Below are positions 9,175-30,797 of a stretch of DNA of 32,000 nucleotides, one piece after another. Within the stretch, counting starts at the first letter, position 1; the number at the start of each line of letters is the position of its first letter. The translations under genes and the position numbers were made by a program. The notes under the pieces are model-generated. The model had not been told where the DNA came from. It saw only the letters and a program-made list of their open reading frames with translations, and did not search any database. Location: contig NZ_DS995298.1 in NCBI RefSeq assembly GCF_000155895.1, forward strand, positions 1-32,000. The letters run 5' to 3'. Origin of the DNA: Candidatus Pelagibacter sp. HTCC7211. GTDB taxonomy: Bacteria > Pseudomonadota > Alphaproteobacteria > Pelagibacterales > Pelagibacteraceae.

Positions 9175-9207
9175 CTCTAATTCTATTTTTGTAATATATA
9201 ACCAAGC

Positions 9208-14178: not shown

Positions 14179-14185
14179 AAAAAAA

Positions 14186-15372: not shown

Positions 15373-16584
15373 TTAGTTTAACCACCATTGATTTTTTTTC
15401 AAAAAATCACTACCAATTCTTCCTTTAATTTCCCCATGATATAATTTTGAATTAAATATTTTTTTACTTGGAAAAATTTTGATAAATTTTTCATTCAATT
15501 TATCACCTTCTTTGTCTTTCCATTCTTTTATATTTCTTTTTGCAGCTTCAATAGCCAATTTTTCTATCTCGTCAGCTGAATTTTGCATTAATTCAATACC
15601 TGCATCCTTAAAGTTTTTTGATTTAAGATATACTGCCGACTCACTATTTGTTATTTCTGAAATAGTTAGTCTTCTTGATAATTTTTTACTATAGTAGTGA
15701 CAGGGTATTGATAACAAACTTGAACATTCCATTCTTAAATCAAATAATGGCGCTATATTAACATAAATGTTTGGTTTTCGAAACATGAGGGTAATGCCAT
15801 CAAATCCTGTTCCTGTTGTTAAACAGAATTCACATTGTGAGCCTAAATAAATATCCATAAAGTCAGTTCTTAAATTATTATACGCGTAGTCAATTATCAT
15901 TTTATTATTTGTATCAATTGGTTTTTTTACAACAGCACCCATCCTTATCACGTAATATCCTAGTTTAGTTAATGCCTCACAAGCATTTACAAAATCATTT
16001 ATATCTGCATCACGATAATCATGAATGCTTATTTTTTTACCGTATAATTTTTCTAGATAAGATGAATCCCTTACGATAAGACAAACAAATTTTGCTTTTT
16101 TTGGTAATCCGATTCTTGCTCTTTCTTTTTCTCCATTAATTAAATCATAATTATTTAATTTTATGGTAGCTGGATATTGATCTAATAAATTTAATATATC
16201 TCGTTGACCACATAATGTATTTCCACATCTTAAAAACTTTAAAAATTTGAAATAACGAATTTGAAGACATAATGGCCTTAAAATAAATCTTGGAAATATT
16301 GTCAATTCCTCTCTCCAAAGTCTTTCAAGCGTTTTATTACATACATTTTTACGTCCTAAATAAAATAGATCTATTGATTTAATTTTCTTTTTTTTTTTTT
16401 CTAAAAGATATAACTCTGTATCTAATGTAAAATGCCCAATTCTATCAGACCTTAGAAAGCCAACTTTTATTTTGATAAATGGATAAATAACAATAAGAAA
16501 AAATAAAAAAGGTAATGAAAGAGGTAACGTTAAAAAAAGGTCTAATTCATATTTTAATATTCCTATAATTCTTTTATTTATCAT
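15373..16584 (-). CDS. Membrane-anchored uncharacterised protein, putative glycosyltransferase
   Basis: An N-terminal hydrophobic segment ('FLTLPLSLPFLFFLIVIYPFI') precedes a soluble domain of about 340 aa. 'FVCLIVRDSSYL...DYRDADINDF...LTKLGYYVIRMG' recalls a poorly characterised putative GT family from memory. The ATG overlaps the upstream stop by 1 nt. Confidence 0.3.
   Translation of the reverse strand: MINKRIIGILKYELDLFLTLPLSLPFLFFLIVIYPFIKIKVGFLRSDRIGHFTLDTELYLLEKKKKKIKSIDLFYLGRKNVCNKTLERLWREELTIFPRFILRPLCLQIRYFKFLKFLRCGNTLCGQRDILNLLDQYPATIKLNNYDLINGEKERARIGLPKKAKFVCLIVRDSSYLEKLYGKKISIHDYRDADINDFVNACEALTKLGYYVIRMGAVVKKPIDTNNKMIIDYAYNNLRTDFMDIYLGSQCEFCLTTGTGFDGITLMFRKPNIYVNIAPLFDLRMECSSLLSIPCHYYSKKLSRRLTISEITNSESAVYLKSKNFKDAGIELMQNSADEIEKLAIEAAKRNIKEWKDKEGDKLNEKFIKIFPSKKIFNSKLYHGEIKGRIGSDFLKKNQWWLN
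16388..16400. repeat. 13-nt homopolymeric T (A13 on the coding strand) inside the putative glycosyltransferase gene
   Basis: Counted directly: positions 16388-16400 are all T. The tract encodes the 'EKKKKK' stretch at about codons 62-67 of ORF 15373-16584. Confidence 0.9.
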
Positions 16585-17267
16585 TACTTTACTAAATTAT
16601 AATTTTTAACTGTGCCTATATCTATGAATAGTTTATCAGTTTTGTATGCTGCAATTTTATTTTCCATTGAACCAAGAACTTCTTTACTAAAATCATATGA
16701 CTCAGGAAATTTTTCAAAAAAAATTTTTAGAAATTCTTTAGATAATATGTAAACAGCACTATTAGCTTCATTTCCATAATTTTTATTCATCTTTTCATAA
16801 AATTTTGTGACTATGTTTTTATTATTTTTTTTGATTATTCCACAGGTTGATGGAGTATCTGTTTCAAACGTCATCATACTTAATTGACAGCTCTTAGGTC
16901 TATTTATATGAAAATTTATAAAATCTTTTAGATCATCTAAAGTATAGTTATCTGCATGTATAAAAAAACCATCTTGTTCATCAAAAAAAGAAATATTGTT
17001 TAATAAAGTTCCAGCTGTTCCTAATAATTCTTTTTCATAAACAACTTTTATTGATTTTTTATATTTTGAAGTATTTATATAATCATTAACTTTTTCACTA
17101 AGATAATGAGTATTAATTAGAAAATCACTTATGCCAGCATTTGATAATTTATCTAGCCATATTTCAAGTAATGGTATTCCTTTAATTGGCATAAGACACT
17201 TTGGAGTATTATTAGTATATGGCCTTAATCGCATACCTTTGCCAGCACACAATAATATTGCCTTCAT
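16584..17267 (-). CDS. Sugar-1-phosphate nucleotidyltransferase (HddC/GDP-heptose-type NTP_transferase)
   Basis: 'MKAILLCAGKGMRLRPYTNNTPKCLMPIKGIPLLE' is the G-x-G-x-R-L nucleotidyltransferase loop and resembles the Campylobacter HddC N-terminus. It overlaps the upstream gene with ATGA. Confidence 0.7.
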   Translation of the reverse strand: MKAILLCAGKGMRLRPYTNNTPKCLMPIKGIPLLEIWLDKLSNAGISDFLINTHYLSEKVNDYINTSKYKKSIKVVYEKELLGTAGTLLNNISFFDEQDGFFIHADNYTLDDLKDFINFHINRPKSCQLSMMTFETDTPSTCGIIKKNNKNIVTKFYEKMNKNYGNEANSAVYILSKEFLKIFFEKFPESYDFSKEVLGSMENKIAAYKTDKLFIDIGTVKNYNLVK

Positions 17268-18703
17268 ATGTTATTGATTTTATTTTGAATTTCTTTTGTT
17301 TTTAAAGGTATATTACCCACTCTACTTACTTGAATTCCAGCACCAACAGAACCTAAGTATGCTGCTTCAAAAATATTAGCTCCACAAGAAAGTGCAAGAG
17401 CGCTGCATACCAGAAGAGAATCTCCAGCTCCAGCAGGGTCAACTGCATTTGTATTGAATGTATTGAGCTGATCTGTAAATAGTTTATCTTGTACTTTGTT
17501 TTTAGAGTGAATTAAAAGACCTTCTTCTCCTAATTTCAGAAGTACATTGTTAGCTTTTGAAATTTCTTTAATCTTATCTGCAAGTACTACTAATCCATCT
17601 TCTCGATTTCTCAATGTTATACGGGCCTCATTTTCTGTGGGTGTAATCAAGTCCATATTTCTAAATCTACTAATATCACCAAATTGTGATGACGACTGAC
17701 TATCTGCAACAATTTTTATTTTTTTAGATATTGCTAATTTAGTTATATGATCAACAACTTTTTGTGGTAACACCCCATAATTAAAATCTGAAAAAATTAA
17801 TAAATTTGAACTTTCTAATTGTTTTTCAATTTTACTAATAAGAATATTTATAAATTTATCACTTATTGAGTTTTGTTTAAGATGGCTTACTTTAAGTAAG
17901 GTCTTATTTTTGTTTCGAAATCTCTTTTTTAATGTTGTTATACGATTATAATCGACAATAATATTGCTATGTACGCCTTGTCTAGATAAAGTTTTTTCAG
18001 CAAAATTTTTATTTTCATCATCACCTGACACAGTAAAAATACTGGATGAAGCACCTAGACCAGCTGCATGAGCAGCAACTATACCTGCTCCACCTATATA
18101 TTTTGAGCTATCTACTGGAGTAACAACAAGAGAAGGGTCTTCTTGAGACATACCAAGTGTTTCACAGTTAATATATTCATCTATTATAAGATCTCCTATC
18201 ACACTTACTTTAACACTTGAAAAAGTATTCAGTAAATTTGTTAATCTTTCAACCTTAATATTGTGTCTTTTGAGGTAATCATGATGCATTAAAAAGTCCT
18301 CGTTTGAGTCATTTTTAATTTCTTTTCTAATCAAATCCATAGAAGATAATAAATTTTCACCTGAGCCAAATAGTAGTTGACCGTTAAACTCTTCTAAAAT
18401 TTCTTTCTCAACATTAAATTTTTGTTCGTGTTCTTTTCCTTTTACAATAATATCTGGCTTTAATTTTTTGATGAAATCTTCAATTGGCTCATCAATAATC
18501 ACTGCTTTATCAACTAAGTTATTTGAAGAAATCCCCTCTAGTCTTAAATTTTCATTTATATAAGCAGCCTTCCCAGCATTTCTATCAGATAAAACTCCAA
18601 CAATAAGTTTTCCGTTCATATCCTTGGCAAATCTAAGAAGTCTTATGTGGCCGGGGTGTAAGACATTAAAAGCACCTGAAATAAAAATTGTTTTATTCAC
18701 CAC
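17264..18703 (-). CDS. Bifunctional cytidylyltransferase-fold nucleotidyltransferase (N-terminal) / PfkB-ribokinase-family sugar kinase (C-terminal); HldE-like with swapped domain order
   Basis: It starts at a GTG (18703 or 18700). N-terminal 'GAFNVLHPGHIRLL' is the (H/T)xGH motif and 'RLEGISS' matches the RTxGIST motif. The C-terminal 340 aa or so carry 'VSVIGDLIIDEYI', 'GGAGIVAAHAAGLGA' and 'DPAGAGDSLL', which are PfkB/HldE domain I hallmarks. Confidence 0.75.
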   Translation of the reverse strand: MVNKTIFISGAFNVLHPGHIRLLRFAKDMNGKLIVGVLSDRNAGKAAYINENLRLEGISSNNLVDKAVIIDEPIEDFIKKLKPDIIVKGKEHEQKFNVEKEILEEFNGQLLFGSGENLLSSMDLIRKEIKNDSNEDFLMHHDYLKRHNIKVERLTNLLNTFSSVKVSVIGDLIIDEYINCETLGMSQEDPSLVVTPVDSSKYIGGAGIVAAHAAGLGASSSIFTVSGDDENKNFAEKTLSRQGVHSNIIVDYNRITTLKKRFRNKNKTLLKVSHLKQNSISDKFINILISKIEKQLESSNLLIFSDFNYGVLPQKVVDHITKLAISKKIKIVADSQSSSQFGDISRFRNMDLITPTENEARITLRNREDGLVVLADKIKEISKANNVLLKLGEEGLLIHSKNKVQDKLFTDQLNTFNTNAVDPAGAGDSLLVCSALALSCGANIFEAAYLGSVGAGIQVSRVGNIPLKTKEIQNKINNI

Positions 18704-19480: not shown

Positions 19481-20353
19481 ATGCATATATCTTTATTTGG
19501 CCACACGGGTTTTTTTGGTAGCGAAATATATAAATATCTTAAAACAAAAAAAAAAATTAGTAGTTTGTCTACTTTTTCCTCTCAAGAATTTGATTTATCA
19601 AAAAAAAAAGCTGTTAGGAGTCTCTCAAAAAGATACCAAAAAGATTGTACTATTATTTTTTGTTCTGGAATAAAAAAACAATACGGTGATAATTTAAACA
19701 TTTTTGATTTAAATATAAAAATAATCACTAACTTTGCAAAATCTCTAAATACAAATGTTAAGAAAATAATTTACTTTAGCTCAGCCTCCGTTTACGGAGA
19801 AGATAAATTACATAAAAAAAGAATAAATGAAAATACTGAACTAAACCTCAAAAGTTATTATGGTTTGAGTAAATTTATTTCTGAAAGAATTTTAGAAAAA
19901 ACTGCAAAAGAACTTGGTATTAAATTAATAATTTTTAGAATACCGCTTGTATATGGTGTTGGAGATAGTACAAAAGGATACGGGCCCTCAGATTTTATAA
20001 ATAGTTTTATTGACAGTAGACCAATCACTCTCTGGGGAAAAGGAGATGAATACAGAGAATTTATATATATTTCAGATATCGTAGAATTAACTTATAAATT
20101 TTTAAATAATAAGTCCGAAGGAATATTTAATATAGTCTCTGGCAAAAGTTATACATTTTTTACAATTATTAAAATTTTAAATAAAATATTTTCAAAAAAA
20201 TATAAGATTAACTATAAAAGAAGATCAAAAAAGAAAGTAGATCATAAATTTGATAATAAAAAAATATTAAAGTTCTCACATGGATACAAATTTCATACAT
20301 TGGAAGAAGGTATTGTTAAATTTTTAAAATCTTATGAAAAAAAAAATAAATAG
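19481..20353 (+). CDS. Extended-SDR NDP-sugar reductase/epimerase
   Basis: 'ISLFGHTGFFGSEI' is a G-x-x-G-x-x-G variant. 'SSASVYG' and 'YGLSKFISE' (Y-x-x-x-K) follow. At 290 aa it is similar in size to 4-ketoreductases of the RmlD/GDP-6-deoxy-4-keto-hexose reductase type. Confidence 0.65.
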   Translation: MHISLFGHTGFFGSEIYKYLKTKKKISSLSTFSSQEFDLSKKKAVRSLSKRYQKDCTIIFCSGIKKQYGDNLNIFDLNIKIITNFAKSLNTNVKKIIYFSSASVYGEDKLHKKRINENTELNLKSYYGLSKFISERILEKTAKELGIKLIIFRIPLVYGVGDSTKGYGPSDFINSFIDSRPITLWGKGDEYREFIYISDIVELTYKFLNNKSEGIFNIVSGKSYTFFTIIKILNKIFSKKYKINYKRRSKKKVDHKFDNKKILKFSHGYKFHTLEEGIVKFLKSYEKKNK

Positions 20354-21518
20354 ATATAACGAAATTATAAATCTTGGATTACAACCTGTTTCTAATAGAT
20401 ATAATAAATCTCCAAATAAAGAATGCTTAAAAACAGATTTGATTTTAGAACAATCAAGTGAAACTGGAATTATTAAACTAAAAAATAGTAGAAATCCTAT
20501 TATCTACAAACCATTAGTTAAATGGATTAAATATAATGAGCCAGAACCTCATCTTGATCAATTTGTTAACACTATATTAAAGAAATATTTTAATAATAAA
20601 AAAATAATTGTAGGTGGCATATCCTCAAAAGATGATTCTACGCTTAATCGATTTTTGAAGCTTGGTCATAAAATTTGGAGAATAGATGAAAAAAAAGATC
20701 TTAAAATAAGTTATGGATCTGGGATTGAAACTATTCAGCACTATTTGGCAAAGAATAGACTTATTCATCTCAATAAAAAGTATGACAAGGTAGATTTTTT
20801 AGTCGTAAGACATATTTGGGAACATGTTTATAATCAAAAAGAATTCAGCGACGTATTAAAAGGTTTGATCAAAAAAGATGGTATAATATTTATTGAAATT
20901 CCTGATTGCCGTAAATTACTAAAAAGTAAAGATATAACAATGATTTGGGAAGAGCATCTCTTTTATTATACTTCACAAACTATCATAACTTCTTTGAGAC
21001 AAAATGGTTTAAGAGTAATAAGTAAAAAAATAATAAGCTATCCTACTGAAAACAGTATTTTATTATGTGTTAAACCGTATAAAAAAAAGAGAAGCTTAAT
21101 TTCAAATCTTCATAATTTAAAAAAAGAGATAAGTCTTGGTGTCAATTATGGAAAACAATATCAAAAAAATAAAAAATATTTAAATAAACTCTTTTCAGTA
21201 ATAACTAAAAAGAAAAAAGAGATTGTGTTATTTGGTGGTGGACATCTTTCATTAGCATTCATCGCATTTTATGATATTTATAAGTATATAAGTTTTATTG
21301 TTGATGATGATGTAAACAAGAAAGGAATGTTTATGCCAGGTAGCTCGATTCAAATAAAATCATCGAATGAACTTACCAATAAACAAAATATACTTTTACT
21401 ACTTACAGTTAACTTAACCAGTGAAAAAAAATTAATAAAATTAATTAAAAAAAAATATGGTAACATTAAAATTAAATCAATATTTCCTCTCAGTACATAT
21501 TCAATTTTTAAGAAATAA
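20334..21518 (+). CDS. NDP-hexose C-methyltransferase-like protein lacking the Zn-ribbon and with a degenerate SAM motif
   Basis: It shares 'LGLQPVSNRY' and the C-terminal 'IVLFGGGHLSLAFI...FIVDDDVNKKGMFMPGSSIQI' domain with the downstream paralog. It has no C-x2-C pairs, and motif I reads 'IIVGGISSKDDS' instead of 'ILDVGSNDGS'. The ATG overlaps the upstream gene by 20 nt. Confidence 0.5.
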   Translation: MKKKINRYNEIINLGLQPVSNRYNKSPNKECLKTDLILEQSSETGIIKLKNSRNPIIYKPLVKWIKYNEPEPHLDQFVNTILKKYFNNKKIIVGGISSKDDSTLNRFLKLGHKIWRIDEKKDLKISYGSGIETIQHYLAKNRLIHLNKKYDKVDFLVVRHIWEHVYNQKEFSDVLKGLIKKDGIIFIEIPDCRKLLKSKDITMIWEEHLFYYTSQTIITSLRQNGLRVISKKIISYPTENSILLCVKPYKKKRSLISNLHNLKKEISLGVNYGKQYQKNKKYLNKLFSVITKKKKEIVLFGGGHLSLAFIAFYDIYKYISFIVDDDVNKKGMFMPGSSIQIKSSNELTNKQNILLLLTVNLTSEKKLIKLIKKKYGNIKIKSIFPLSTYSIFKK

Positions 21519-21526
21519 ATTTTAAA

Positions 21527-22771
21527 ATGATAAATTTTAAAGAGATCTTGAAAGATAATAAATGTGATATATGTGGTTCAAAATCTATCAAACCGGCATT
21601 AAGCTTTAGCCCTTCTCCCTTAGGTGACATTTATCTACCATCAGATAAAAAACACTTATCTAACAAGTTGTATCCATTAGACTTATATAATTGTGCTAAG
21701 TGTGGTTATTTATCTTTAATAGATAAAGTAAATCCAAAATTGAGTTACACAAATTATATTTATGAGAGCAAAACAACCGTAGGTCTTTTGACTCACTATG
21801 ATAAATATGCAAAAGAAATATGTAAAAAATTAAGTCTATCAGAAAAAGACAAAATACTTGATGTTGGAAGTAATGACGGGTCAATGTTAAGTTCATTTAA
21901 AAAAGAAGGACTATTTACTTTAGGTGTAGAGCCTGCTTCGGAAATAGCTAAAATTGCAAATAATAGTGGATTTAAAACTATTAATGGATATTTGAACAGT
22001 AATACAAGTTCTTATATTTTAAAAAAATATGGGACATTTAATGTAATAACTGCAAATTATGTTTTTGCTAATATACTAGATGTAAATTCTTTTGTAAAAA
22101 ATATATATAAATTACTCTCAAAAAATGGGAGCTTTGTAATACAGACTGGGTACCATCCAAAACAATTTAAAAAAAATATGTTTGATTACGTGTATCATGA
22201 ACATTTTTCTTATTTTTCGTTAAATACATTAATATTCTTAATGTCTAAATATAAATTAAAGCTTGTTGATGTTGAAACCAATACTAAAAAAGGTGGTTCA
22301 ATTAGGGTCATTTTTTCTAAAGATCAAAAAGCAAAAAAAAATAAGAAAAAAATTGATAAAGTCATAAATTATGAAAAAAAATTAAATATAAATAGTGATA
22401 AGTATTTTATGAACTTTGAAAAAAGATTGGTTAAACTTAAAACTAAATCACAAAATGAACTTGAAAAAATAAAATTTAAAAAAAAAACAATAGTAGGTTT
22501 AGGTGCATCTCATAGTGTTTCTACTCTAACACATCATTTTAAATTAAATAGATTTTTCGATTACTTAGTAGATGATAACAAAAAGAAACATGGGCTTTAT
22601 TCACCAGGTTCAAATTTAATTGTTCGTCCAGTAAAATTTGGAAAAAAAATACCTAATTACATTTATGTTCTGGCATGGCAACATCAAAAAACAATATTAA
22701 AAAAATATCAATATTTAAAAAAAAGAGGGATTAAGTTTATTATTCCATTGCCAAAGTTTAAAATTATATAA
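21527..22771 (+). CDS. NDP-hexose C-methyltransferase (Zn-ribbon + class I MTase + C-methyltransferase C-terminal domain)
   Basis: 'CDICGS' ... 'CAKCGY' form the Zn-ribbon. 'ILDVGSNDGSML' is motif I. 'IVGLGASHSVSTLT...YLVDDNKKKHGLYSPGSNLIV' is the C-terminal domain typical of TylCIII-type sugar C-methyltransferases. Confidence 0.65.
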   Translation: MINFKEILKDNKCDICGSKSIKPALSFSPSPLGDIYLPSDKKHLSNKLYPLDLYNCAKCGYLSLIDKVNPKLSYTNYIYESKTTVGLLTHYDKYAKEICKKLSLSEKDKILDVGSNDGSMLSSFKKEGLFTLGVEPASEIAKIANNSGFKTINGYLNSNTSSYILKKYGTFNVITANYVFANILDVNSFVKNIYKLLSKNGSFVIQTGYHPKQFKKNMFDYVYHEHFSYFSLNTLIFLMSKYKLKLVDVETNTKKGGSIRVIFSKDQKAKKNKKKIDKVINYEKKLNINSDKYFMNFEKRLVKLKTKSQNELEKIKFKKKTIVGLGASHSVSTLTHHFKLNRFFDYLVDDNKKKHGLYSPGSNLIVRPVKFGKKIPNYIYVLAWQHQKTILKKYQYLKKRGIKFIIPLPKFKII

Positions 22772-22775
22772 ATAA

Positions 22776-23711
22776 TTATTCCCAAATTGTATCATTGTCT
22801 TTGAAAGGTCCATTATTTACCTCTAGAAAAATGCAATAATCAGATTTACTCTCGACAATTCTAAATTCATTAGGTTTCAATCTATATGATTTTGATAATG
22901 TTTCATTTTCAAATGTTTCTGATCCTAGAATAACTTTTTTGTTTTTATCTTTATTTGAAATCTCAAGCAAACCATCAATAATATGATAACTGATTGATTC
23001 TTTATTTTGTTTTAGTGGACCAACAGAGGATGGACAGGAATGAAACATGTACATTTCATGCAAATTTGAATCATCATCTTTGTGAAGACATATTCTGCTT
23101 ACTTTAATATTTCTTATTTGTGATAGAAAAAGAAAAAAATAAAGATGCTTTTTAGAAACATTAAAAATATTATTTTTAGAATAGTATACTCTCTCGTTTT
23201 TTTTAACTATATTAAGTTGATTTATTATATTTTTTTCAATTAAATTTTCATATTTTTTATTAAAATCTCTAAATTTTTTTGAAAGATAATTGCTAATTTT
23301 GAATAAATTTTCATAAATAGCTGGAACAATATCGAGATGCACTAATTCATCTATACTAAACCAGTTATATTCTATACCTTCATTAAGTTTAAATTTATTA
23401 TTTTCGTCTTCTTTACTTATAAAAATTGGAAAATAATGAAGATCAATTGATTTCCACTTACTCTGAAAAATTTCGCTTTCAATTAATTTTGGAGAGTATT
23501 CAATTTCTTCAATCAATTCTCGTCTGAGAGCTTCATGAAAATTTTCTCCAACTTCAACCTCTCCCCCAAAAAAATTCCAATGAAGAGGGTATGGAATTTC
23601 AGGGTTATTATCTCTTTTTTGAAGCAGCAATTTTTTGTCTGATCTATATATTATGGCTTTAACTGCATGGAAAGATTTTTTACTGGTATTATTCAAAGTA
23701 GATAAATTCAT
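22776..23711 (-). CDS. Nudix hydrolase fused to a C-terminal WbuC-like cupin domain
   Basis: The Nudix box is 'GGEVEVGENFHEALRRELIEEIEY' (G-x5-E-x7-R-E-x2-E-E). The C-terminal 130 aa or so, 'ICLHKDDDSNLHEMYMFH...SYHIIDGLLEI...FLEVNNGPF', resemble WbuC-family cupins. The ORF track starts at GTG 23777 inside the upstream gene; ATG 23711 ('MNLSTLNN') is preferred. Confidence 0.6.
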   Translation of the reverse strand: MNLSTLNNTSKKSFHAVKAIIYRSDKKLLLQKRDNNPEIPYPLHWNFFGGEVEVGENFHEALRRELIEEIEYSPKLIESEIFQSKWKSIDLHYFPIFISKEDENNKFKLNEGIEYNWFSIDELVHLDIVPAIYENLFKISNYLSKKFRDFNKKYENLIEKNIINQLNIVKKNERVYYSKNNIFNVSKKHLYFFLFLSQIRNIKVSRICLHKDDDSNLHEMYMFHSCPSSVGPLKQNKESISYHIIDGLLEISNKDKNKKVILGSETFENETLSKSYRLKPNEFRIVESKSDYCIFLEVNNGPFKDNDTIWE

Positions 23712-24354
23712 AATCACCTTTATATCCAAAATGTTCAAATAACCATATCCATGAGTCTTTATTAAAAAAAGATTCACATGTGAGGGCCCAGCATTGTAAA
23801 TTAAATTGTTCTTTTTCGTTTCTATAACTTTCGACAGCTATATATTTGTTTTTACCTACTCTCTCAATTTCTGTAATAGCAGTTTTTAAGTCAGGTATTT
23901 GAAGATTGTGCAAGGCATTTATAGATATGACTAGGTCAAATTCATTATCTTTAAAAGGAAGAGTTTTTTTCAAATTATGAATGAAAAAATTATTCTTAAA
24001 TATTTCAGGAGCCTCTTTAAGAGCATGCTTAGAAATATCTATTCCAACTATATTTATTGATGGTAATTGTTTTTTTATCTCTAAAAGCAAAAATCCTTTA
24101 CCACATCCTGCATCTAAAATTCTAGAATTATCTTTTAAGTTATAATCAGTTATTATTTGCTTAGCAAGACTGCTCCATCTTCCTTTTATATATTTATAGC
24201 CTCCATAACCATATCTTCTATCACCATCCCAATAATTAAATTCATATTTCTTAGCTTCAATCATACATGAAACCTTATCATCATTCATCCTTTCCAGATA
24301 TTCACGTTTAGTAGATTTATGAAGTGCAGTTATATAATCTTTTAATCGTCCCAT
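23689..24354 (-). CDS. Class I SAM-dependent methyltransferase
   Basis: 'ILDAGCGKGFLLLEI' is motif I, 'IVGIDIS' motif II and 'FDLVISINALHN' motif III. The ATG at 24354 lies 4 nt after the upstream stop. Confidence 0.75.
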   Translation of the reverse strand: MGRLKDYITALHKSTKREYLERMNDDKVSCMIEAKKYEFNYWDGDRRYGYGGYKYIKGRWSSLAKQIITDYNLKDNSRILDAGCGKGFLLLEIKKQLPSINIVGIDISKHALKEAPEIFKNNFFIHNLKKTLPFKDNEFDLVISINALHNLQIPDLKTAITEIERVGKNKYIAVESYRNEKEQFNLQCWALTCESFFNKDSWIWLFEHFGYKGDYEFIYFE

Positions 24355-24358
24355 TCCT

Positions 24359-24751
24359 TTAAAATTTTTCCAAACAGTTAGGTAATACTTCTTTTATACT
24401 CCAAATATCTTCAATTATTTGAATATCATCTTTATTATTAAAAATCCTATTTTCTAGAGCAAAGTAAATTTTTTTTTTATTTTTAATGGCAATTTTATAA
24501 ATTTTTTCTCTTTGACTAGTATCATTTGGTAATTGAAACAAACTATAAAGAATTATATCCTCTTTATTAATTTCATTAATTATTTTAAAAAGAACTTTTG
24601 ATGAGTTCTTCATTGCATATTCAGTTGCACTCAATAAATACATAATATTGTTTCTTGAACAATAATCTCTAATAGCTAGGTTTTGAATGGATTGAGGAAT
24701 TCGTTCACCAAGAAATTTCCTACTAAAGATATACCCTCTTGCTTTTTTCAT
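24359..24751 (-). CDS. Small uncharacterised partner protein of the 2OG oxygenase, copy 2
   Basis: This 130-aa protein overlaps the oxygenase with ATGA. It is a by-eye paralog of ORF 14937-15371. It has no transmembrane segment and no catalytic motif I can name. Confidence 0.55.
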   Translation of the reverse strand: MKKARGYIFSRKFLGERIPQSIQNLAIRDYCSRNNIMYLLSATEYAMKNSSKVLFKIINEINKEDIILYSLFQLPNDTSQREKIYKIAIKNKKKIYFALENRIFNNKDDIQIIEDIWSIKEVLPNCLEKF

Positions 24752-25545
24752 TTAATCTTTGGCAATTTATATTTCATTGCAAATTTTGAAGCTGCTTTAA
24801 GTGAAATTGGCTCAAAAAATTCTCCTAACTTTTTGTCACCATATGGAGTAAAAATACCTTTAAATCGACAATTCATCGACCATCTTGTCTCTTTTTCCTC
24901 ATTTACTAAATTTCCATGTGGTAGACATTGATTGAATATTAAAACCTGACCATAGTTTATTTTAAGCCATTTTATATCATTTTTAATTTTCGGAAAAAGC
25001 TCTGAACTATTTTTAAATTTTGAACTTTGAAGCAGATTAGTAATTTTTTTATACTTTGAGGCTGGAAGTATAAACATACTTTTTGTCTTAAAGCAGTTCA
25101 CGAGAGGTAGCCATACAACTGACTCAAATGGAGAGTCTCCTGACCAGGTATCTGCGTGAACATCTAACAATGAACTTTTATCTTTAGGTAATTGAATACT
25201 GAGGTTTACTCGGTTTTGCATAACAAGTTCGTTGCCAACAATTTCATTTAAAAATGGAGAAGCAACATTATAATATTCTTTTCTAAAATTTTTATCTTTA
25301 TTGACTTCCTGGATTAAACTAAGTCTAAAATTATTAAGATCATTAATTTTTATCAATTTATGAAAGTTATTTAAAATATCTTTATTTGAGTAATCTTGAT
25401 TAAAATAATTTTTAATAAATTTTAAATAAAAATTTCTTATCCAATCTAAAGACCTTATATTTTGGATATCAACAATGATATATCCATCTTTAAGATATCT
25501 TTTAGACAAATAATTTTCAGACTCAGTAATGAATATGTTACTCAT
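24748..25545 (-). CDS. 2OG-Fe(II) oxygenase (PhyH-like), carbohydrate-cluster type, copy 2
   Basis: 'VHAD' ... 'LPHGN' form the H-x-D...H triad, with Arg in 'ETRWSMNCRF'. It is collinear with copy 1: 'LNNFHK' vs 'LNHFHK', 'VVWLPLVNCFKTKSMFIL' vs 'VAWIPLVDCYKSKAMYIL'. Confidence 0.7.
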   Translation of the reverse strand: MSNIFITESENYLSKRYLKDGYIIVDIQNIRSLDWIRNFYLKFIKNYFNQDYSNKDILNNFHKLIKINDLNNFRLSLIQEVNKDKNFRKEYYNVASPFLNEIVGNELVMQNRVNLSIQLPKDKSSLLDVHADTWSGDSPFESVVWLPLVNCFKTKSMFILPASKYKKITNLLQSSKFKNSSELFPKIKNDIKWLKINYGQVLIFNQCLPHGNLVNEEKETRWSMNCRFKGIFTPYGDKKLGEFFEPISLKAASKFAMKYKLPKIK

Positions 25546-26473
25546 ATTTTTTTAGAAAATTTAAAGTAGTTTTAATAATTTTTTTATCGCTTAATCCATG
25601 ACTATCTAAAAGATCATCTTGAGAACCATAATTATTAATAAATTTATCTTTAAGTGAAAAATTTTGAATATTTCCAGAGTATTTATTCTCGTAGGCTAAT
25701 CCTTTAACAATTTCTGAAAGACCTCCAACAATTGAATGATCTTCAATATTTACAATATATTTATATTCTTTAAAAATTTTTTTTAATCTTTTTTCATCAA
25801 ATGGTTTTAATGTGCTGCAGCTATAAATTGAGCTCTTAATTCCATATTTTTTTAAAGCATCTACCGCGGTAAATGATTTTCTAATAATATTTCCATAGGT
25901 CAGAAAACAAATATCTTTACCTTCAATTATTCTTCTGATTTTACCAAACTGCCATTTTTCTTTGGAAATTTGTGTATAATTTTTTTCTCCAGATTTTCCA
26001 ATTCTAAGATATGTGGGTGAATTTGACTTGTTGCAGCAATAATCAACTGCTTGTTTTAATTCGAGAGGGTCAGATGGAGCAATGATAGTCATATTTGGTA
26101 TAGACCTTGCTACAGATATATCCTCCATAGTTATATGTGTACCTCCAAGTGTAGCATAAGTTGTCCCTGAACCCATTCCAACTATTGTAACTGGTAAATT
26201 TTGATAACATAAGTCATTCCTAACCATTTCAAATGGTCTATAAAGAGTGAAGTTTGCTATTGTGTATGCAAAAGATCTTTTGCCTTCTAGAGCTAGACCT
26301 GCGCACATACCTATCATGGTCATTTCTGAAACACCTACATTGATGAATCTTCGTGGATATTTTTTTTGAAAATTTAACATATTTCCAGCTATTGATATAT
26401 CAGCTACCACAACGTAAATATTTTTATTTTTTATTGCATTTTGATATAATGTTTCTGCAAATATATTTCTCAT
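25538..26473 (-). CDS. Transketolase, C-terminal (pyrimidine-binding + C-terminal domain) subunit
   Basis: 'FINVGVSEMTMIGMCAGLALEG' and 'MGSGTTYATLGGTHITMEDISVARSIPNMTIIAPSDP' are typical of the B subunit of split transketolases. It overlaps the N-terminal subunit gene with ATGA. Confidence 0.8.
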   Translation of the reverse strand: MRNIFAETLYQNAIKNKNIYVVVADISIAGNMLNFQKKYPRRFINVGVSEMTMIGMCAGLALEGKRSFAYTIANFTLYRPFEMVRNDLCYQNLPVTIVGMGSGTTYATLGGTHITMEDISVARSIPNMTIIAPSDPLELKQAVDYCCNKSNSPTYLRIGKSGEKNYTQISKEKWQFGKIRRIIEGKDICFLTYGNIIRKSFTAVDALKKYGIKSSIYSCSTLKPFDEKRLKKIFKEYKYIVNIEDHSIVGGLSEIVKGLAYENKYSGNIQNFSLKDKFINNYGSQDDLLDSHGLSDKKIIKTTLNFLKKYE

Positions 26474-27243
26474 AAATTATTTATTTCTTTTATCGCTTGT
26501 TTATATTCGTTTTTATTAGGTGATCTGTAATGCCATAATGCAACGTTCTTCATAAAACTGACTGGATAGCCTTTTATAGTTTTAGCAATTAATGCAAAAG
26601 GTTTTTTTCCTTTACGTGATTTAATTTTTTTGAAAATTTCCTCTGTAGAATGCCCGTTGCAGTTAGAGGACTCCCATCCAAACTCTTTAAATTTTTTTGA
26701 TATAGGATATAAATTTGGGTGAGTTTCTGATGACCTTGTTGAGCTTTGAAGATCATTATTATCTATAATTAAAACAATATTTGTTAAATTTAGTGCACCT
26801 ATAATAAGTGCAGACTCCCACACAGATCCTTCATGTAATTCTCCATCACTTAATAACACGAAATAAGTGCTATCTTTTTTTGCTAAAGCCATACCAGAAA
26901 CCATTCCTAAACCATGACCTAATGATCCTGTTGATGCATTAATTCCTTTTTTACCAAAATCAGGATGAACACCCAAATAACCACCCCTCTGGCAATATGA
27001 ATTTAATTCTTTTTTAGATATAATTTTCAAATAATATAGTAATACATATTGAATAATTCCCGCATGACCTTTTGAAAGAATAAATTTATCTCTTTTTTTT
27101 AAACAAATATTATAAATACAATCAACAATTTCTACTGATGAAAATGATCCACCTATGTGTAAAGCTTGAACTTTTTGGGATAAATTAAGAATTTCGCGTC
27201 TATGAATTTTACATCGTAATTTAGCATCAAAAAATTTTTTCAT
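26470..27243 (-). CDS. Transketolase, N-terminal (ThDP-binding) subunit
   Basis: 'LSKGHAG', 'TGSLGHGLGMVSGMALA' and 'LLSDGELHEGSVWES...IIDNN' form the ThDP/Mg-binding G-D-G...N-type motif region of split transketolases. Confidence 0.8.
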   Translation of the reverse strand: MKKFFDAKLRCKIHRREILNLSQKVQALHIGGSFSSVEIVDCIYNICLKKRDKFILSKGHAGIIQYVLLYYLKIISKKELNSYCQRGGYLGVHPDFGKKGINASTGSLGHGLGMVSGMALAKKDSTYFVLLSDGELHEGSVWESALIIGALNLTNIVLIIDNNDLQSSTRSSETHPNLYPISKKFKEFGWESSNCNGHSTEEIFKKIKSRKGKKPFALIAKTIKGYPVSFMKNVALWHYRSPNKNEYKQAIKEINNL

Positions 27244-27248
27244 TTTTG

Positions 27249-28238
27249 TTATTTAAGTTGATATGACTGCATTCTTTTAATATTGAAATACATTTCATTT
27301 TCGAGAGAGTTAACTAATAACTTTTCATCAAAAGCTTTTTTAAGATCTATAACAGCATCTTGAACTGTGAATTGAGTTTTAAAATTAAGTATTTCAGTTA
27401 TCTTTTTTGAGGAAATATGATAAGATCTATTATCATTTGTAGGAGTAGTTTCCAATACCACATCCTCACCAATAATTTTTTTTGTTACATTTGCTAAATC
27501 GATAACTTTTTGATTTTCAAACCCAACATTAAATATTTGATTTGATATCAAATTTTTTTTTGCATTAAGCACCAAGTAATAAGACTCAATCATATCCTTG
27601 ATATGTAAATTAGGTCTTAATTGTTCACCTCCGAAAACTGTAATTTTACGTTTATGATAGGCTAAGTTTGTTAAAATATTTACAACAACATCCAACCTTT
27701 GTCTTGTTGAATAACCACATACAGTTGCAGGACGAATTGTAACAGTTGTAAAATCTTCAGTGTTATATCTTGATAGAATAGACTCACACTCAGCTTTGAA
27801 TTTTGAATAATCAGTCAAAGGTTCGAGAGCCATATCCTCATGAACGTTTATTTCATTTTTAATTCCATATACAGATGATGAAGAAGCGTAAATAAATCTT
27901 TTAACATTTAATTCTCTAGCTATTTTCACCATTGGCTCAAATGCATCCAAATTTATTGATTTTCCAAGATTTGGGTTTAATTCAAAGCTTGGATCATTGG
28001 ATATACATGCTAAATGAATTACAGCGTCATGACCTTTCATTGATTTTTTAACATTCTCAATATCTCTAATATCGCCTGTAACTTTTTTTATTTTTGAATT
28101 ATCGGCAATGACATCCTCACCATATATCATTAGATCATAAATGGTTAGTTCATATCCCTTGGAAATCAAGAATGGAGCCAACATAGCACCAACATAACCA
28201 GCTCCACCAGTTATAAAAATTTTTTTTATTTCAGTCAT
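27249..28238 (-). CDS. Extended-SDR NAD-dependent NDP-sugar epimerase/dehydratase (first gene of the operon)
   Basis: 'IFITGGAGYVGAMLA', 'ASSSSVYG' and 'YSKFKAECE'. It is a paralog of the SDR portion of the CBS-SDR fusion at 3766-5148. Confidence 0.75.
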   Translation of the reverse strand: MTEIKKIFITGGAGYVGAMLAPFLISKGYELTIYDLMIYGEDVIADNSKIKKVTGDIRDIENVKKSMKGHDAVIHLACISNDPSFELNPNLGKSINLDAFEPMVKIARELNVKRFIYASSSSVYGIKNEINVHEDMALEPLTDYSKFKAECESILSRYNTEDFTTVTIRPATVCGYSTRQRLDVVVNILTNLAYHKRKITVFGGEQLRPNLHIKDMIESYYLVLNAKKNLISNQIFNVGFENQKVIDLANVTKKIIGEDVVLETTPTNDNRSYHISSKKITEILNFKTQFTVQDAVIDLKKAFDEKLLVNSLENEMYFNIKRMQSYQLK

Positions 28239-28417: not shown

Positions 28418-28807
28418 ATGAAACATAGCGATATTAAAATTTCATCTAATAAAAGTTTTGGAATAGTTTTTTGTGTCTTGTTTTTAATTATTTCATTATT
28501 TCCTCTACTAAATGGTGAGGGTATTAGAATTTGGTCTTTAATCATTTCTGTAGTTTTTTTAATTTTAGGTTTATTAAATTCAAAATTTTTAACACCTTTA
28601 AATAAACTTTGGTCTAATTTTGGAATTTTTCTAGGAAATTTTATTTCTCCAATTATTATGGCAATAGTTTTTTTTTCAATTGTTACACCCACCTCTATTG
28701 TAATGAAAATTTTAGGTAAAAACCTACTTAATTTAAAAAAAAAAAAGAAAAATTCATACTGGATTGAAAGATCTAAAATTAAAAGTAAAATGAAAGATCA
28801 ATTTTAA
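28418..28807 (+). CDS. SxtJ-like small membrane protein
   Basis: A 129-aa protein with several hydrophobic segments. 'SNKSFGIVF', 'LTPLNKLWSNFGIFLGNFISPIIMAIVFF' and the C-terminal '...SYW...MKDQF' match my memory of the SxtJ family found next to carbamoyltransferases. Confidence 0.6.
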   Translation: MKHSDIKISSNKSFGIVFCVLFLIISLFPLLNGEGIRIWSLIISVVFLILGLLNSKFLTPLNKLWSNFGIFLGNFISPIIMAIVFFSIVTPTSIVMKILGKNLLNLKKKKKNSYWIERSKIKSKMKDQF

Positions 28808-28809
28808 TT

Positions 28810-28959
28810 ATGGATTTTATAAAAGAATTTTGGCAATTTATAAAAGTACGAAAAAAATATTGGTTATTACCAATTTTAATTGTTTTAGTTATATTTGGAG
28901 GTTTAATCGTTTTAAGTCAAGGTTCAGCTATAGCGCCTTTTATTTATACAATTTTTTAG
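28810..28959 (+). CDS. SxtK-like / DUF5989-type 49-aa single-pass membrane protein (absent from the ORF track)
   Basis: My own translation from ATG 28810 gives MDFIKEFWQFIKVRKKYWLLPILIVLVIFGGLIVLSQGSAIAPFIYTIF, ending at TAG 28957-28959. It starts 2 nt after the SxtJ-like stop, and its stop overlaps the GTG of the carbamoyltransferase by 1 nt. The sequence pattern is typical of the small protein conserved beside carbamoyltransferases. Confidence 0.65.
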   Translation: MDFIKEFWQFIKVRKKYWLLPILIVLVIFGGLIVLSQGSAIAPFIYTIF

Positions 28960-30797
28960 TGAAATCTATTCTTGGTATATCAGCATTTTATCATGACAGC
29001 GCTGCGTCTATTCTTATAGATGGAAAAATAATAGCTGCTGCACAAGAAGAGAGATTTACAAGGAAAAAACATGACTCGAGTTACCCATATCATGCAATTG
29101 AATTTGTTTTAAGTTTTGCTAAAATTAAACTTAGTGAAGTTGATCAAATTATTTTCTTTGAAAAACCTTTTTTAAAATTTGAAAGATTATTGGAAACATA
29201 CGTTGCTTTTGCACCAAAAGGTTTTAAATCTTTTTCTACTGCAATGCCAATATGGCTGAAAGATAAATTATTTCAAAAAAAATTACTTTTTACTAAATTA
29301 AAAAAACATGACGATAAATTTAATGATAATAAAAAAATTTATTTTTCAGAACATCATTTAAGTCATGCTGCAAGCGCCTTTTTTCCGTCTCCATTCGAAG
29401 AGGCGATAGTTTTAACTGCTGATGGTGTTGGTGAGTGGGCAACAACTACAGTTGCTATCGGTAAGGGAAATAGTCTTGAAATTAAAAAAGAAATACATTT
29501 CCCTCATTCATTAGGATTACTTTATTCAGCCTTTACTTATTATACTGGATTTAAAGTTAATAGTGGAGAATATAAACTCATGGGTCTGGCTCCTTATGGA
29601 GATCCTATTTATGAGCAAGTAATAAAGAGAAATATAATTGACATAAAGGAGGATGGGTCCTTTCATCTTGATCAGTCATATTTTAATTATGCTACTGGTT
29701 TAACAATGACGAATGAAAAGTTTAATAATTTATTTGGACGAAAAGCTAGGAACCCTAGGTATGAAGAACTTACACAATTTCATATGGATATAGCATCTTC
29801 AATTCAAAAAATAACAGAGGACATAATGATTAAACTCTGCAAATCCTTAAAAAATGAATTTAATATTTCGAACTTATGTTTAGCTGGTGGTGTTGCACTA
29901 AATTGTGTTGCTAATGGAAAAATTTTGAAAGAAAAAATTTTTGACAAAATTTGGGTTCAACCAGCTGCGGGGGATGCTGGGGGTTCATTAGGTGCAGCTT
30001 TAGCTTTATGGTATATTGAACAAAATAATCCTAGAAAAATTAATATTAAAGATGATATGCAAGGTTCTTATCTTGGACCCGAATACTCACAAAATGAAAT
30101 TGAAGAGCAACTTACTAAAATTGGAGCAAAATATGAAATTATTTCAGATCAAGAATTAATAGATAAAACTGCTAATGATTTATCTCAAGATAATGCAATT
30201 GGTTGGTTTCAAGGAAGAATGGAATTTGGACCACGTGCACTAGGTGCAAGATCTATTTTAGCTAATCCTAAATCAGATCATATGCAAAAAAATTTAAATT
30301 TGAAAGTTAAATATAGAGAGAGCTTTAGACCATTTGCACCATCAGTGTTAAAAGAGGATGTATCTGAATGGTTTAATATTGATGTTGATAGTCCTTACAT
30401 GCTTATGGTTTCAAATATTAATAAAGATAAGACAATTGAAATGACTAATGATCAAAAAAAGTTATTTGGCATAGACAAATTAAATGTAAAAAGATCTGTA
30501 ATACCTGCAGTTACGCATGTTGATTATTCTGCGAGAATACAAACTGTTCACAGAGAAACAAATAGTAAATATTATGATTTAATTAAAAGATTCAAGGATA
30601 AAACAAATTGTCCTATTCTTATAAATACATCTTTTAACGTTAGAGGAGAACCCATTGTAAATACTGTCTTTGATGCTTTTAATTGTTTTATGGGTACGAA
30701 TTTGGATAAATTAGTTATAGGCAATTGTTATCTAGATAAAAAAAATCAAAATAAAAGTTTGAAAAAAGAGTACAAAAATAAATTTGAATTAGATTAA
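28959..30797 (+). CDS. NodU/CmcH-family O-carbamoyltransferase
   Basis: From GTG 28959 the protein begins 'VKSILGISAFYHDSAASILIDGKIIAAAQEERFTRKKHD', the canonical N-terminus of this family. 'EHHLSHAASAF' is the metal-binding His cluster. The ORF-track start (TTG 28830) adds 43 non-homologous residues in a frame that overlaps the 49-aa gene. Confidence 0.85.
   Translation: MKSILGISAFYHDSAASILIDGKIIAAAQEERFTRKKHDSSYPYHAIEFVLSFAKIKLSEVDQIIFFEKPFLKFERLLETYVAFAPKGFKSFSTAMPIWLKDKLFQKKLLFTKLKKHDDKFNDNKKIYFSEHHLSHAASAFFPSPFEEAIVLTADGVGEWATTTVAIGKGNSLEIKKEIHFPHSLGLLYSAFTYYTGFKVNSGEYKLMGLAPYGDPIYEQVIKRNIIDIKEDGSFHLDQSYFNYATGLTMTNEKFNNLFGRKARNPRYEELTQFHMDIASSIQKITEDIMIKLCKSLKNEFNISNLCLAGGVALNCVANGKILKEKIFDKIWVQPAAGDAGGSLGAALALWYIEQNNPRKINIKDDMQGSYLGPEYSQNEIEEQLTKIGAKYEIISDQELIDKTANDLSQDNAIGWFQGRMEFGPRALGARSILANPKSDHMQKNLNLKVKYRESFRPFAPSVLKEDVSEWFNIDVDSPYMLMVSNINKDKTIEMTNDQKKLFGIDKLNVKRSVIPAVTHVDYSARIQTVHRETNSKYYDLIKRFKDKTNCPILINTSFNVRGEPIVNTVFDAFNCFMGTNLDKLVIGNCYLDKKNQNKSLKKEYKNKFELD

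Follow-up and report, generated by a model that had tools for sequence, protein, structure and literature searches.

Thiamine diphosphate (ThDP)-dependent enzymes of three classes branch keto sugars, namely YerE-like decarboxylases in lipopolysaccharide (LPS) biosynthesis, E1 alpha/beta enzymes known as alphaKADH2, and split-gene transketolases (PMC12247030). YerE, from the yersiniose pathway, catalyzes ThDP-dependent C–C branching of a nucleoside diphosphate (NDP)-4-keto sugar in O-antigen biosynthesis, and the alphaKADH2 enzymes place two-carbon (C2) branches on keto sugars with pyruvate as the donor (PMC12247030). For the split-gene transketolases, hydroxyacetyl transfer to keto sugars has been proposed and is untested; there are 13 candidates, all from Streptomycetes, and keto-sugar branching by such enzymes has already been proposed for miharamycin and amipurimycin (PMC12247030). 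In the GDP-heptose pathway of C. jejuni, Cj1427 re-oxidizes its tightly bound NADH with 2-oxoglutarate (2OG), which yields L-2-hydroxyglutarate (PMC10680097). Fragmentary transketolase genes have also been described in a hypervariable region of SAR11 (Fonsibacter), where they were judged unlikely to be pentose-phosphate pathway enzymes and their role was left open (PMC6811365). Here we analyze the first 32,000 nucleotides of contig NZ_DS995298.1 of Candidatus Pelagibacter sp. HTCC7211 (the window), in which seven consecutive minus-strand open reading frames (ORFs) at 22776–28238 combine a split transketolase with sugar-modifying enzymes. The best explanation of our results is that these genes represent, in Pelagibacter, a sugar-nucleotide tailoring module that has spread horizontally and is part of a larger heptose-type surface-glycan cluster. 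An earlier note on this DNA had stated that a ThDP-dependent two-carbon transferase belongs to no textbook O-antigen or capsule pathway; for O-antigen pathways this was overstated, as YerE is known and split transketolases have been proposed for the two antibiotics.

The first of the seven genes encodes an extended short-chain dehydrogenase/reductase (SDR*, 27249–28238; Pfam Epimerase, 132 bits), a candidate NDP-heptose C4-dehydrogenase. It is followed by TktN (26470–27243; Transketolase_N, 85.9 bits) and TktC (25538–26473; Transket_pyr and Transketolase_C), the N-terminal (PP-domain) and C-terminal (Pyr and C domain) subunits of a split transketolase-like enzyme. Next are a 2OG-Fe(II) oxygenase of the 'sporadic carbohydrate cluster' type (OXY, 24748–25545; TIGR04324, 318.5 bits, cutoff 150), a 130-aa small protein of the LIC12192 family (SML, 24359–24751; TIGR04323, 132.5 bits, cutoff 55), and a class I S-adenosylmethionine (SAM) methyltransferase (MT, 23689–24354; Methyltransf_31, 76.9 bits). 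The last gene encodes an accessory Nudix hydrolase fused to a WbuC-like cupin (22776–23711; NUDIX, 59.4 bits; TIGR04366, 35.6 bits). Hidden Markov model (HMM) searches agree with all seven family assignments that the earlier note had made from the sequence, the cupin half being below its cutoff. They also bear out its statement that TIGRFAMs holds 'sporadic carbohydrate cluster' families for the oxygenase and its small partner, as both proteins score above the cutoffs.

We tentatively propose a route in which an NDP-heptose is converted to a 4-keto sugar, receives a C2 branch from the ThDP enzyme, and is then hydroxylated and methylated; as a whole, the route falls somewhat short of an even bet. 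We infer each of its chemical steps from the observed gene content, synteny, residue conservation, folds, and fusions. By analogy, the system appears to work like the ThDP-dependent sugar-branching pathways of YerE, alphaKADH2, and the proposed split transketolases. With the YerE-like pathways of yersiniose, erwiniose, and caryophyllose it would share the use of ThDP to join a small donor to an NDP-4-keto sugar destined for a surface glycan. YerE, however, is a single chain of the decarboxylase/acetohydroxyacid synthase (AHAS) superfamily (TPP_enzyme_N/M/C) that uses 2-oxo acid donors and a 3,6-dideoxyhexose acceptor, whereas here the protein is a two-subunit member of the transketolase superfamily and the acceptor is probably a heptose. 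The alphaKADH2 enzymes of aldgarose, kibdelomycin, paulomycin, and avilamycin biosynthesis are likewise ThDP-dependent heterodimers that put a C2 branch on a keto sugar; they serve actinomycete secondary metabolism with pyruvate as the donor, whereas the window has the transketolase type. The split transketolases of miharamycin and amipurimycin resemble the present pair in being encoded by two genes of a sugar-tailoring cluster in which a neighboring oxidoreductase is believed to provide the keto acceptor, and their function is proposed only. The 13 Streptomyces candidates, likened here by description and not by sequence, serve nucleoside-antibiotic pathways, whereas members of the cluster family are found in islands for surface polysaccharides in Pelagibacterales, Leptospira, cyanobacteria, Actinomycetota, and other groups, always with the TIGR04324/TIGR04323 pair. 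The system is distinct from these pathways in its superfamily (versus YerE), in taxonomy and product type (versus Streptomyces), in its probable heptose acceptor, and in its obligatory trio of OXY, resolvase-fold SML, and MT.

Recomputed from SDR* to the Nudix-cupin gene, the junctions are +5, −4 (ATGA), −8, −4 (ATGA), +4, and −23 nt, exactly the values that the earlier note had reported. Its conclusion that they indicate one operon needs a different footing. Outside the operon, same-strand junctions in the window are at most 10 nt in 13 of 17 cases, and tight spacing is by itself weak evidence for an operon here. A promoter and terminator scan of the window, which has a GC content of about 25%, returned 40 sites versus 43.8 expected, no better than shuffles. 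Because tight spacing is common in this genome and these scans are uninformative, the operon argument must rest on comparative evidence. Synteny across phyla carries it and lifts the seven-gene arrangement above chance.

GTDB species-representative genomes were scanned for stretches encoding an oxygenase relative. Of the 331 found, the best-scoring 80 (not a random sample) were taken with 10-kb flanks and are cited by L numbers; counts below use only loci with enough flank. These loci span Pelagibacteraceae, SAR116, Leptospira, cyanobacteria, Actinomycetota, Chloroflexota, Bdellovibrio, Beta- and Gammaproteobacteria, and Chitinophagales, with GC contents between 27 and 57%. In about 60 of the 80, the genes stand in the order TktN-TktC-OXY-SML-MT. 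SML adjoins OXY in 77 of 78 loci, TktC is directly upstream of OXY in 62 of 77, and TktN is upstream of TktC in 58 of 73, while a transketolase gene of either kind lies within 10 kb in 47 of 51. MT immediately follows SML in 49 of 65 loci and is within 10 kb in 43 of 45, and an SDR* orthologue (at least 55% identity) is within 10 kb in 40 of 51. Among the 35 loci with full flanks, 34 encode a ThDP heterodimer; the remaining one, L012, has tblastn matches. Median junctions in the other genomes are −4 nt for TktC to OXY, −4 nt for OXY to SML, and +3 nt for SML to MT. Three more distant, high-GC contigs (OXY 45% identical) have the same gene order. A conserved transketolase-OXY-SML unit, which the earlier note had set as a test of its idea, is thus found. 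Its seven-gene unit stands as to the core, and the real unit is larger, with a Nudix gene in only 8 of 45 loci and a WbuC-like cupin gene in 23 of 45.

Clustering of all ORFs of the loci gave the usual gene order, in which parentheses here mark genes that are bracketed in the consensus layout. The 5′ part consists of (a PglK-like ATP-binding cassette (ABC) exporter), (an L-2-hydroxyglutarate oxidase), a GmhA-like SIS isomerase, an SDR, and (an NTP-transferase and a PfkB kinase-cytidylyltransferase-like fusion). The middle part consists of SDR*, (two DegT genes), a 540-aa APH-like kinase, TktN, TktC, OXY, SML, (Nudix or radical SAM), and MT. After MT come (an RmlD-like reductase, or a C-methyltransferase, a WbuC cupin, and a second C-methyltransferase) and then TIGR04372 glycosyltransferases. 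Judged by these gene families, the functional unit would extend beyond the seven genes to a heptose-type isomerase, a kinase/nucleotidyltransferase, TIGR04372 glycosyltransferases, and C-methyltransferases. The 540-aa protein (L004, 6639–8261, and 42 other loci) has an APH-like kinase domain at residues ~250–460; we found no PDB relative for it and no Pfam match for its N-terminal 240 aa. Among the side observations on these loci, the contigs L081–L083 (55–62% GC) come from IMG/VR, where they are labeled 'viral', and carry TktC-OXY-SML-MT, with SDR and TktN in addition on L082 and L083. No search for phage genes was made, and they may be cellular fragments. L038 is a contig of 26.7% GC with a Pelagibacter-like gene order in a metagenome-assembled genome labeled archaeal (Methanobacteriota NAT11), and may be misbinned.

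The closest PDB structures of both transketolase subunits are those of the split transketolase of C. hydrogenoformans (6YAK for TktN, E 2e-35; 6YAJ for TktC, E 8e-43). We inspected residue conservation in 64 TktN and 69 TktC cluster sequences, using what we take to be E. coli transketolase numbering. The four N-domain His, His473, the cofactor-activating Glu, and the Asp and Asn that bind ThDP/Mg are invariant, as is the Arg at TktC position 2. The residues around the acceptor differ. Ser385 is replaced by Gly in 66 of 69 TktC (the window TktC keeps Ser), His461 by Gly, Ala, or Ser in all 69 (Gly in the window), and Asp469 by Leu in 65 (also in the window). Arg520 is mostly Lys, as in the window, Glu468 is Pro in the TktC family, and the GSLGQG motif is G[AS]LGHG in the TktN family. 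The C. hydrogenoformans enzyme has the same two-gene architecture and catalytic core and keeps His461, Asp469, Arg520, and GSLGQG, none of which the cluster family has preserved. Nor does it have Arg420 and Asp427 of DXS, as the aligned TktC positions are Gly and Leu. Neither subunit reaches the NCBIfam transketolase equivalog cutoff of 488 (TktN 166 bits, TktC 144 bits), and the DXS equivalog TIGR00204 is not reached either (166.7 versus 465.95 bits). The ThDP catalytic core is thus intact, and the acceptor pocket is predicted to be of neither the pentose-phosphate transketolase nor the DXS type. On the basis of these residues, we predict an active ThDP enzyme whose sugar-phosphate/Asp469 acceptor pocket has been remodeled. 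This systematic replacement of acceptor and phosphate residues agrees with the earlier suggestion that the transketolase is not of the housekeeping type.

The loss of these residues bears on the idea that the seven genes form no functional unit, being chance neighbors in a streamlined and tightly packed genome with a housekeeping pentose-phosphate transketolase among them. Tight junctions are indeed the norm in the window, and the window TktC is about equally similar to a genuine split transketolase (30%) and to cluster TktC (median 32%), the other cluster TktC proteins being 59% identical among themselves. Chance assembly is nevertheless most improbable and already largely refuted by the synteny statistics across phyla, by the family-wide loss of transketolase substrate-binding residues, which the window protein shares, and by a neighbor-joining tree that places the window TktC, with its shared signature substitutions, inside the cluster family. 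The transketolase fragments of the Fonsibacter hypervariable region were likewise judged unlikely to be pentose-phosphate enzymes (PMC6811365).

In the proposed route, the TktN/TktC heterodimer would move a C2 unit onto the ketone and give a C-branched tertiary alcohol. A ketose or hydroxypyruvate donor would yield a hydroxyacetyl branch, and pyruvate an acetyl branch. C2 addition had been suggested by the earlier note, and it gains support from three Pelagibacter loci (L017, L018, and L037) in which a pyruvate dehydrogenase (PDH)-E1 alpha/beta pair (families f28/f29) takes the place of the transketolase, which has no match there. L053 likewise carries the pair and lacks an adjacent transketolase, and L042 combines an E1 pair with a transketolase. 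In terms of gene context, C2 transfer to a sugar carbonyl is argued for most strongly by this interchange of two ThDP classes at one position.

The carbonyl could also be an aldehyde. The ThDP enzyme would then attach the C2 ketol at a terminal aldehyde, namely C6 or C7 of an oxidized NDP-sugar, and OXY and MT would decorate the resulting octose- or nonose-type sugar. Chain extension of this kind, which the earlier note had listed as an alternative, is unlikely in our view. Aldehydes are the natural acceptors of transketolases, the four N-domain catalytic His and His473 are retained, and a heptose context would lead to a C9 product. However, the adjacent SDR resembles a C4 dehydrogenase and not a primary-alcohol oxidase, the E1 alpha/beta replacement belongs to a class documented for ketone branching, and Asp469, the residue that reads the alpha-hydroxyl of an aldose acceptor, is Leu.

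Several side observations concern the ThDP genes and their neighbors. TktC is only ~163 aa long (Pyr domain, no Transketolase_C) in L007, L015, L019, L020, L033, L038, L055, L069, L077, and L084–L086, mostly loci of the Pelagibacter type. A 356–358-aa radical SAM/SPASM gene directly precedes OXY in L017, L018, and L037, and a 379-aa CxxxCxxC protein is encoded two genes before OXY in L053. On the metagenomic contig L084, a YerE/AHAS-type ThDP enzyme (1–616; TPP_enzyme_N/M/C) is encoded ~5 kb upstream of the split-transketolase module, and two sugar-branching ThDP classes may coexist there.

SDR* directly precedes TktN in the window with a 5-nt gap. Its closest solved relative is 6VO6/6VO8 (E 3e-35, ~30% identity), which we take to be C. 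jejuni Cj1427, the heptose C4-dehydrogenase that recycles its cofactor with 2OG. The SDR* family is among the closest to 6VO6 of the SDR families in these loci, and its orthologues are 60–68% identical across phyla. In the 6VO6 alignment, the window protein carries the GxxGxxG and YxxxK motifs, with GGAGYVG, SSSSVYG, and YSKFK visible, and lacks the dehydratase Asp-Glu pair of 4,6-dehydratases. By homology and context, SDR* would oxidize C4 to a ketone, as Cj1427 does. An L-2-hydroxyglutarate oxidase (NF008726, 556 bits, cutoff 299) is encoded in 11 loci (L016, L032, L035, L045, L052, L057, L060, L061, L064, L072, and L073), all with SDR*; its gene adjoins that of the SIS isomerase in ten of them and a kinase/transferase gene in L045. 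As such an oxidase in a polysaccharide cluster is hard to explain otherwise, we regard it as the recycling partner of a Cj1427-like dehydrogenase, which would fit the 2OG ping-pong reaction of C. jejuni. The co-occurrence suggests that this ping-pong mechanism is widespread and has a dedicated recycling partner. Together, the 6VO6 similarity and the oxidase strengthen the earlier proposal that the SDR makes a keto sugar.

The sugar itself would be supplied by three further minus-strand genes of the window. They encode a GmhA-like SIS ketose-phosphate isomerase (11393–11938; TIGR00441, 87.8 bits, below cutoff; family f11, 27 loci), an HldE-like kinase/nucleotidyltransferase (17264–18703; rfaE_dom_I 188 and rfaE_dom_II 58.5 bits, both below cutoff; family f9, 42 loci), and an HddC-like sugar-1-phosphate nucleotidyltransferase (16584–17267; NTP_transferase 109.7 bits, HddC model 75.7 bits; family f14, 20 loci). 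These proteins may make an NDP-heptose or a close analogue. 'Heptose-type' is our reading, because all matches to heptose-pathway models are below their equivalog cutoffs. Isomerase, kinase, nucleotidyltransferase, and a Cj1427-like SDR all have counterparts in the C. jejuni pathway of GmhA, a kinase, HddC, and Cj1427. Unlike in C. jejuni, the kinase is of the PfkB type, at the C-terminal end of a protein with a cytidylyltransferase-like N-terminal domain, in reversed order. In C. jejuni, moreover, only epimerases and reductases act after the oxidation, and there is no ThDP enzyme, 2OG oxygenase, or SML.

The same genes could also place the ThDP enzyme before nucleotide activation, where it would make an unusual ketose phosphate for the isomerase, kinase, and nucleotidyltransferases to turn into an NDP-sugar. 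An SIS or PfkB-cytidylyltransferase gene lies beside the module in 30 of the 35 full-flank loci, and the gene for the 540-aa kinase-like protein lies immediately before TktN in 37 loci, which include most of the non-Pelagibacter ones. The enzyme may also still bind a phosphate, because Arg358 is invariant and Lys replaces Arg520. Even so, we hold such a supply role to be quite unlikely. Ser385, His461, and Asp469 are lost family-wide, and the stop/start overlaps couple the enzyme to OXY, SML, and MT and not to the isomerase or kinase. Sedoheptulose-7-phosphate requires no dedicated enzyme. The E1 alpha/beta pair can substitute for the transketolase, and E1 enzymes are generally known to make no ketose phosphates by ketol transfer.

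The DegT aminotransferase pairs between SDR* and the kinase or TktN in about one third of the loci point in another direction, namely supply of an activated C2 acyl group (glycolyl or acetyl) for N- or O-acylation of an amino sugar made by the DegT enzymes. The QncN/QncL system is a ThDP-dependent generator of an activated C2 acyl equivalent, and transketolase-like and E1-like enzymes are generally known to be able to form acyl-ThDP after oxidation. Acyl supply is improbable, however: the conserved core has no carrier protein, lipoyl domain, or acyltransferase, SML has no carrier-protein features, and DegT is absent from many loci and does not adjoin the operon in the window. Two further candidates were rejected. 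Phosphonate biosynthesis was dropped because a phosphoenolpyruvate mutase is missing and the ThDP enzyme does not belong to the Ppd type (a 0.0036 match only), and de novo phosphocholine/ethanolamine synthesis because it leaves OXY without a role and the DegT enzymes are sugar-type ones.

Several points weigh against C2 branching of a 4-keto NDP-heptose, the route that we favor. For the chemistry, ketone-sugar acceptance in vitro has so far been demonstrated for no transketolase (PMC12247030). The invariant Arg358 and the Lys at 520 leave room for a phosphorylated substrate, the window TktC is as divergent as given above, and the residue numbers, placed through the 6YAJ alignment, are presumed equivalents of the E. 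coli positions. For the acceptor, ~30% identity between SDR* and 6VO6 does not fix the regiochemistry, and a fusion of a CBS domain with an SDR elsewhere in the window (3766–5148, plus strand; 34% identity, 144 bits) is as close to 6VO6 as the operon SDR. The DegT aminotransferases, where present, would compete for the 4-keto group. A role before nucleotide activation would account equally well for the strong association with isomerase and kinase genes. The window itself has neither the L-2-hydroxyglutarate oxidase nor the 540-aa APH-like kinase found in most other loci. Finally, a literature search on TIGR04324 and TIGR04323 ('sporadic carbohydrate cluster', LIC12192) returned no paper mentioning either family.

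The window OXY and SML are clear members of TIGR04324 and TIGR04323, families that carry names but no function, product, or mechanism. OXY is 100% identical to a protein of Candidatus Pelagibacter sp. HTCC7211. Its HxD...H iron triad (H130-x-D132...H210) and the 2OG-binding R221 are invariant in 20 sequences. The protein has no Pfam match, and its HMM profile found only PhyH in the PDB (E 0.22). Its AF2 model (pLDDT 86.8) has the jelly-roll fold and matches PhyH-clan oxygenases in Foldseek with a probability of 1.0 and TM scores of 0.43–0.53; the distant structural relatives include CurA halogenase, SptF, AndA, SnoN, GriE, HygX, and PtlH. TIGR04324 comprises more than 3,000 clusters at 90% identity. 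MT orthologues are 52–63% identical, and MT has only generic PDB relatives.

The AF2 model of SML (pLDDT 84.9) ends in a long C-terminal helix similar to the resolvase E-helix, and its top Foldseek matches are all serine-recombinase catalytic domains (probability 0.99–1.0, TMq 0.49–0.70). Pfam gives a weak match to Pox_F16. The match to serine recombinases is one of fold. Alignment with the gamma-delta resolvase profile is not significant (hhalign probability 0.25%), and the register of the invariant S10/R11 of SML versus R8/S10 of resolvase is ambiguous. SML has no DNA-binding domain, as its 130 aa end after the long helix and the family is ~130–150 aa long; SML is also set apart by its fusions to methyltransferases and its place in sugar operons. 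In the family, 22 residues are invariant and most of these are polar (S10, R11, R17, Q20, Q23, N24, S41, E44, S70, Q73, R81, and E100 are among the 22), which suggests a ligand-binding or catalytic site. A role as a GmhB-type phosphatase was considered and dropped as unsupported.

An exhaustive SML profile search returned 966 TIGR04323 clusters at 50% identity, nearly all of them stand-alone proteins, and three fused forms. SML is joined to the cluster MT in a 353-aa protein (P0250/P0391; L084–L086); its 16 members come from many contigs, where the gene order is SDR-TktN-short TktC-OXY-fusion. In a second form (503–516 aa), it is joined to a different and larger Zn-ribbon methyltransferase, with 18 members, one labeled Myxococcales. 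The third is a 270-aa tandem SML-SML protein; besides P0250/P0391, the entries of these fused forms are P0365 and P0242. Because SML adjoins OXY and is recurrently fused to methyltransferases, it is functionally tied to both OXY and MT. The earlier view of the small protein as a partner of OXY therefore holds as far as adjacency goes and has to be widened to the methyltransferase. In the proposed route, OXY may hydroxylate and MT methylate the intermediate, and resolvase-fold SML might serve both as a shared nucleotide-sugar-binding or dimerizing subunit; our confidence in these assignments is low. A bolder version, rather unlikely to hold in full, is that OXY, SML, and MT form an undescribed three-part tailoring machine in which SML, a recruited domain of serine-recombinase architecture, binds or acts on the nucleotide-sugar diphosphate and which, with a natural ketone-accepting transketolase, puts an as yet undescribed C9 branched heptose on the surfaces of SAR11, pathogenic Leptospira, cyanobacteria, and freshwater Actinomycetota. 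The window has a second, divergent oxygenase (14162–14962, plus strand; TIGR04324, 190 bits; 32% identical to OXY), followed by a 144-aa ORF (14937–15371, plus strand) that resembles SML in part, matching 54 columns of its profile (hhalign probability 87%). L020 and L076 contain additional pairs of this sort.

If the proposed route is true, the cluster enzymes would be the first natural transketolase family outside Streptomyces to use a sugar ketone as the acceptor. This reaction has been sought by biocatalysis groups and is still unproven (PMC12247030). The family offers many sequence variants and clear active-site signatures, which make the ketone-acceptor question directly testable. The route would further give a role to two catalogued, uncharacterized families, TIGR04324 and TIGR04323, and would imply that the most abundant marine bacterium displays an as yet unknown sugar on its surface, encoded within a gene island for sugar biosynthesis. 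An effect on phage defense has been suggested for SAR11 hypervariable regions of this kind (PMC6811365). The same kind of sugar would be expected in pathogenic Leptospira. LIC12192 presumably lies in the rfb/LPS locus of that genus.

The Nudix-cupin gene closes the operon from an ATG at the 23711 end, with a GTG at 23777 also open. Its Nudix half scores 59.4 bits with PF00293 (cutoff 21.1), and its Nudix box, GEVEVGENFHEALRRELIEEIEY, has an intact REUxEE core and Glu in place of the last Gly. The cupin half is below the WbuC cutoff (TIGR04366, 35.6 versus 42 bits) and 28–37% identical to the cupin genes of other loci, of which the stand-alone one of L004 scores 142 bits. The same fusion follows MT in L001, L052, L054, L068, L072, L073, and L080. 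As an accessory enzyme, it may hydrolyze or epimerize a nucleotide-linked species.

Finished sugars would be placed in a surface polymer by TIGR04372 glycosyltransferases, one of which is encoded at 15373–16584 on the minus strand (229.2 bits, cutoff 45; family f7, 30 loci, often in tandem). A tandem pair of sugar C-methyltransferase-like genes (20334–22771, plus strand; Methyltransf_13, Methyltransf_23, and Methyltransf_14) converges on the end of the operon; members of their family, f10, occur in 28 loci and usually lie downstream of MT. Elsewhere in the window, an FdtA/RmlC-like cupin (3306–3758, plus strand) lies just before the CBS-SDR gene, and a DegT aminotransferase (5150–6331, plus strand) directly after it. 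An ABC exporter is encoded at 6431–8218, as assigned by family match. PseF (pseudaminic acid cytidylyltransferase, above cutoff), a GDP-mannose 4,6-dehydratase, a GDP-L-fucose synthase with a score near the cutoff, and GalE are encoded at 1582–2262, 8218–10257, and 10276–11268, and their presence indicates that several sugar pathways share the island. Divergent from the operon, at 28418–30797 on the plus strand, are genes for an SxtJ-like small membrane protein and a carbamoyltransferase, a pair that hints at O-carbamoylation of a sugar.

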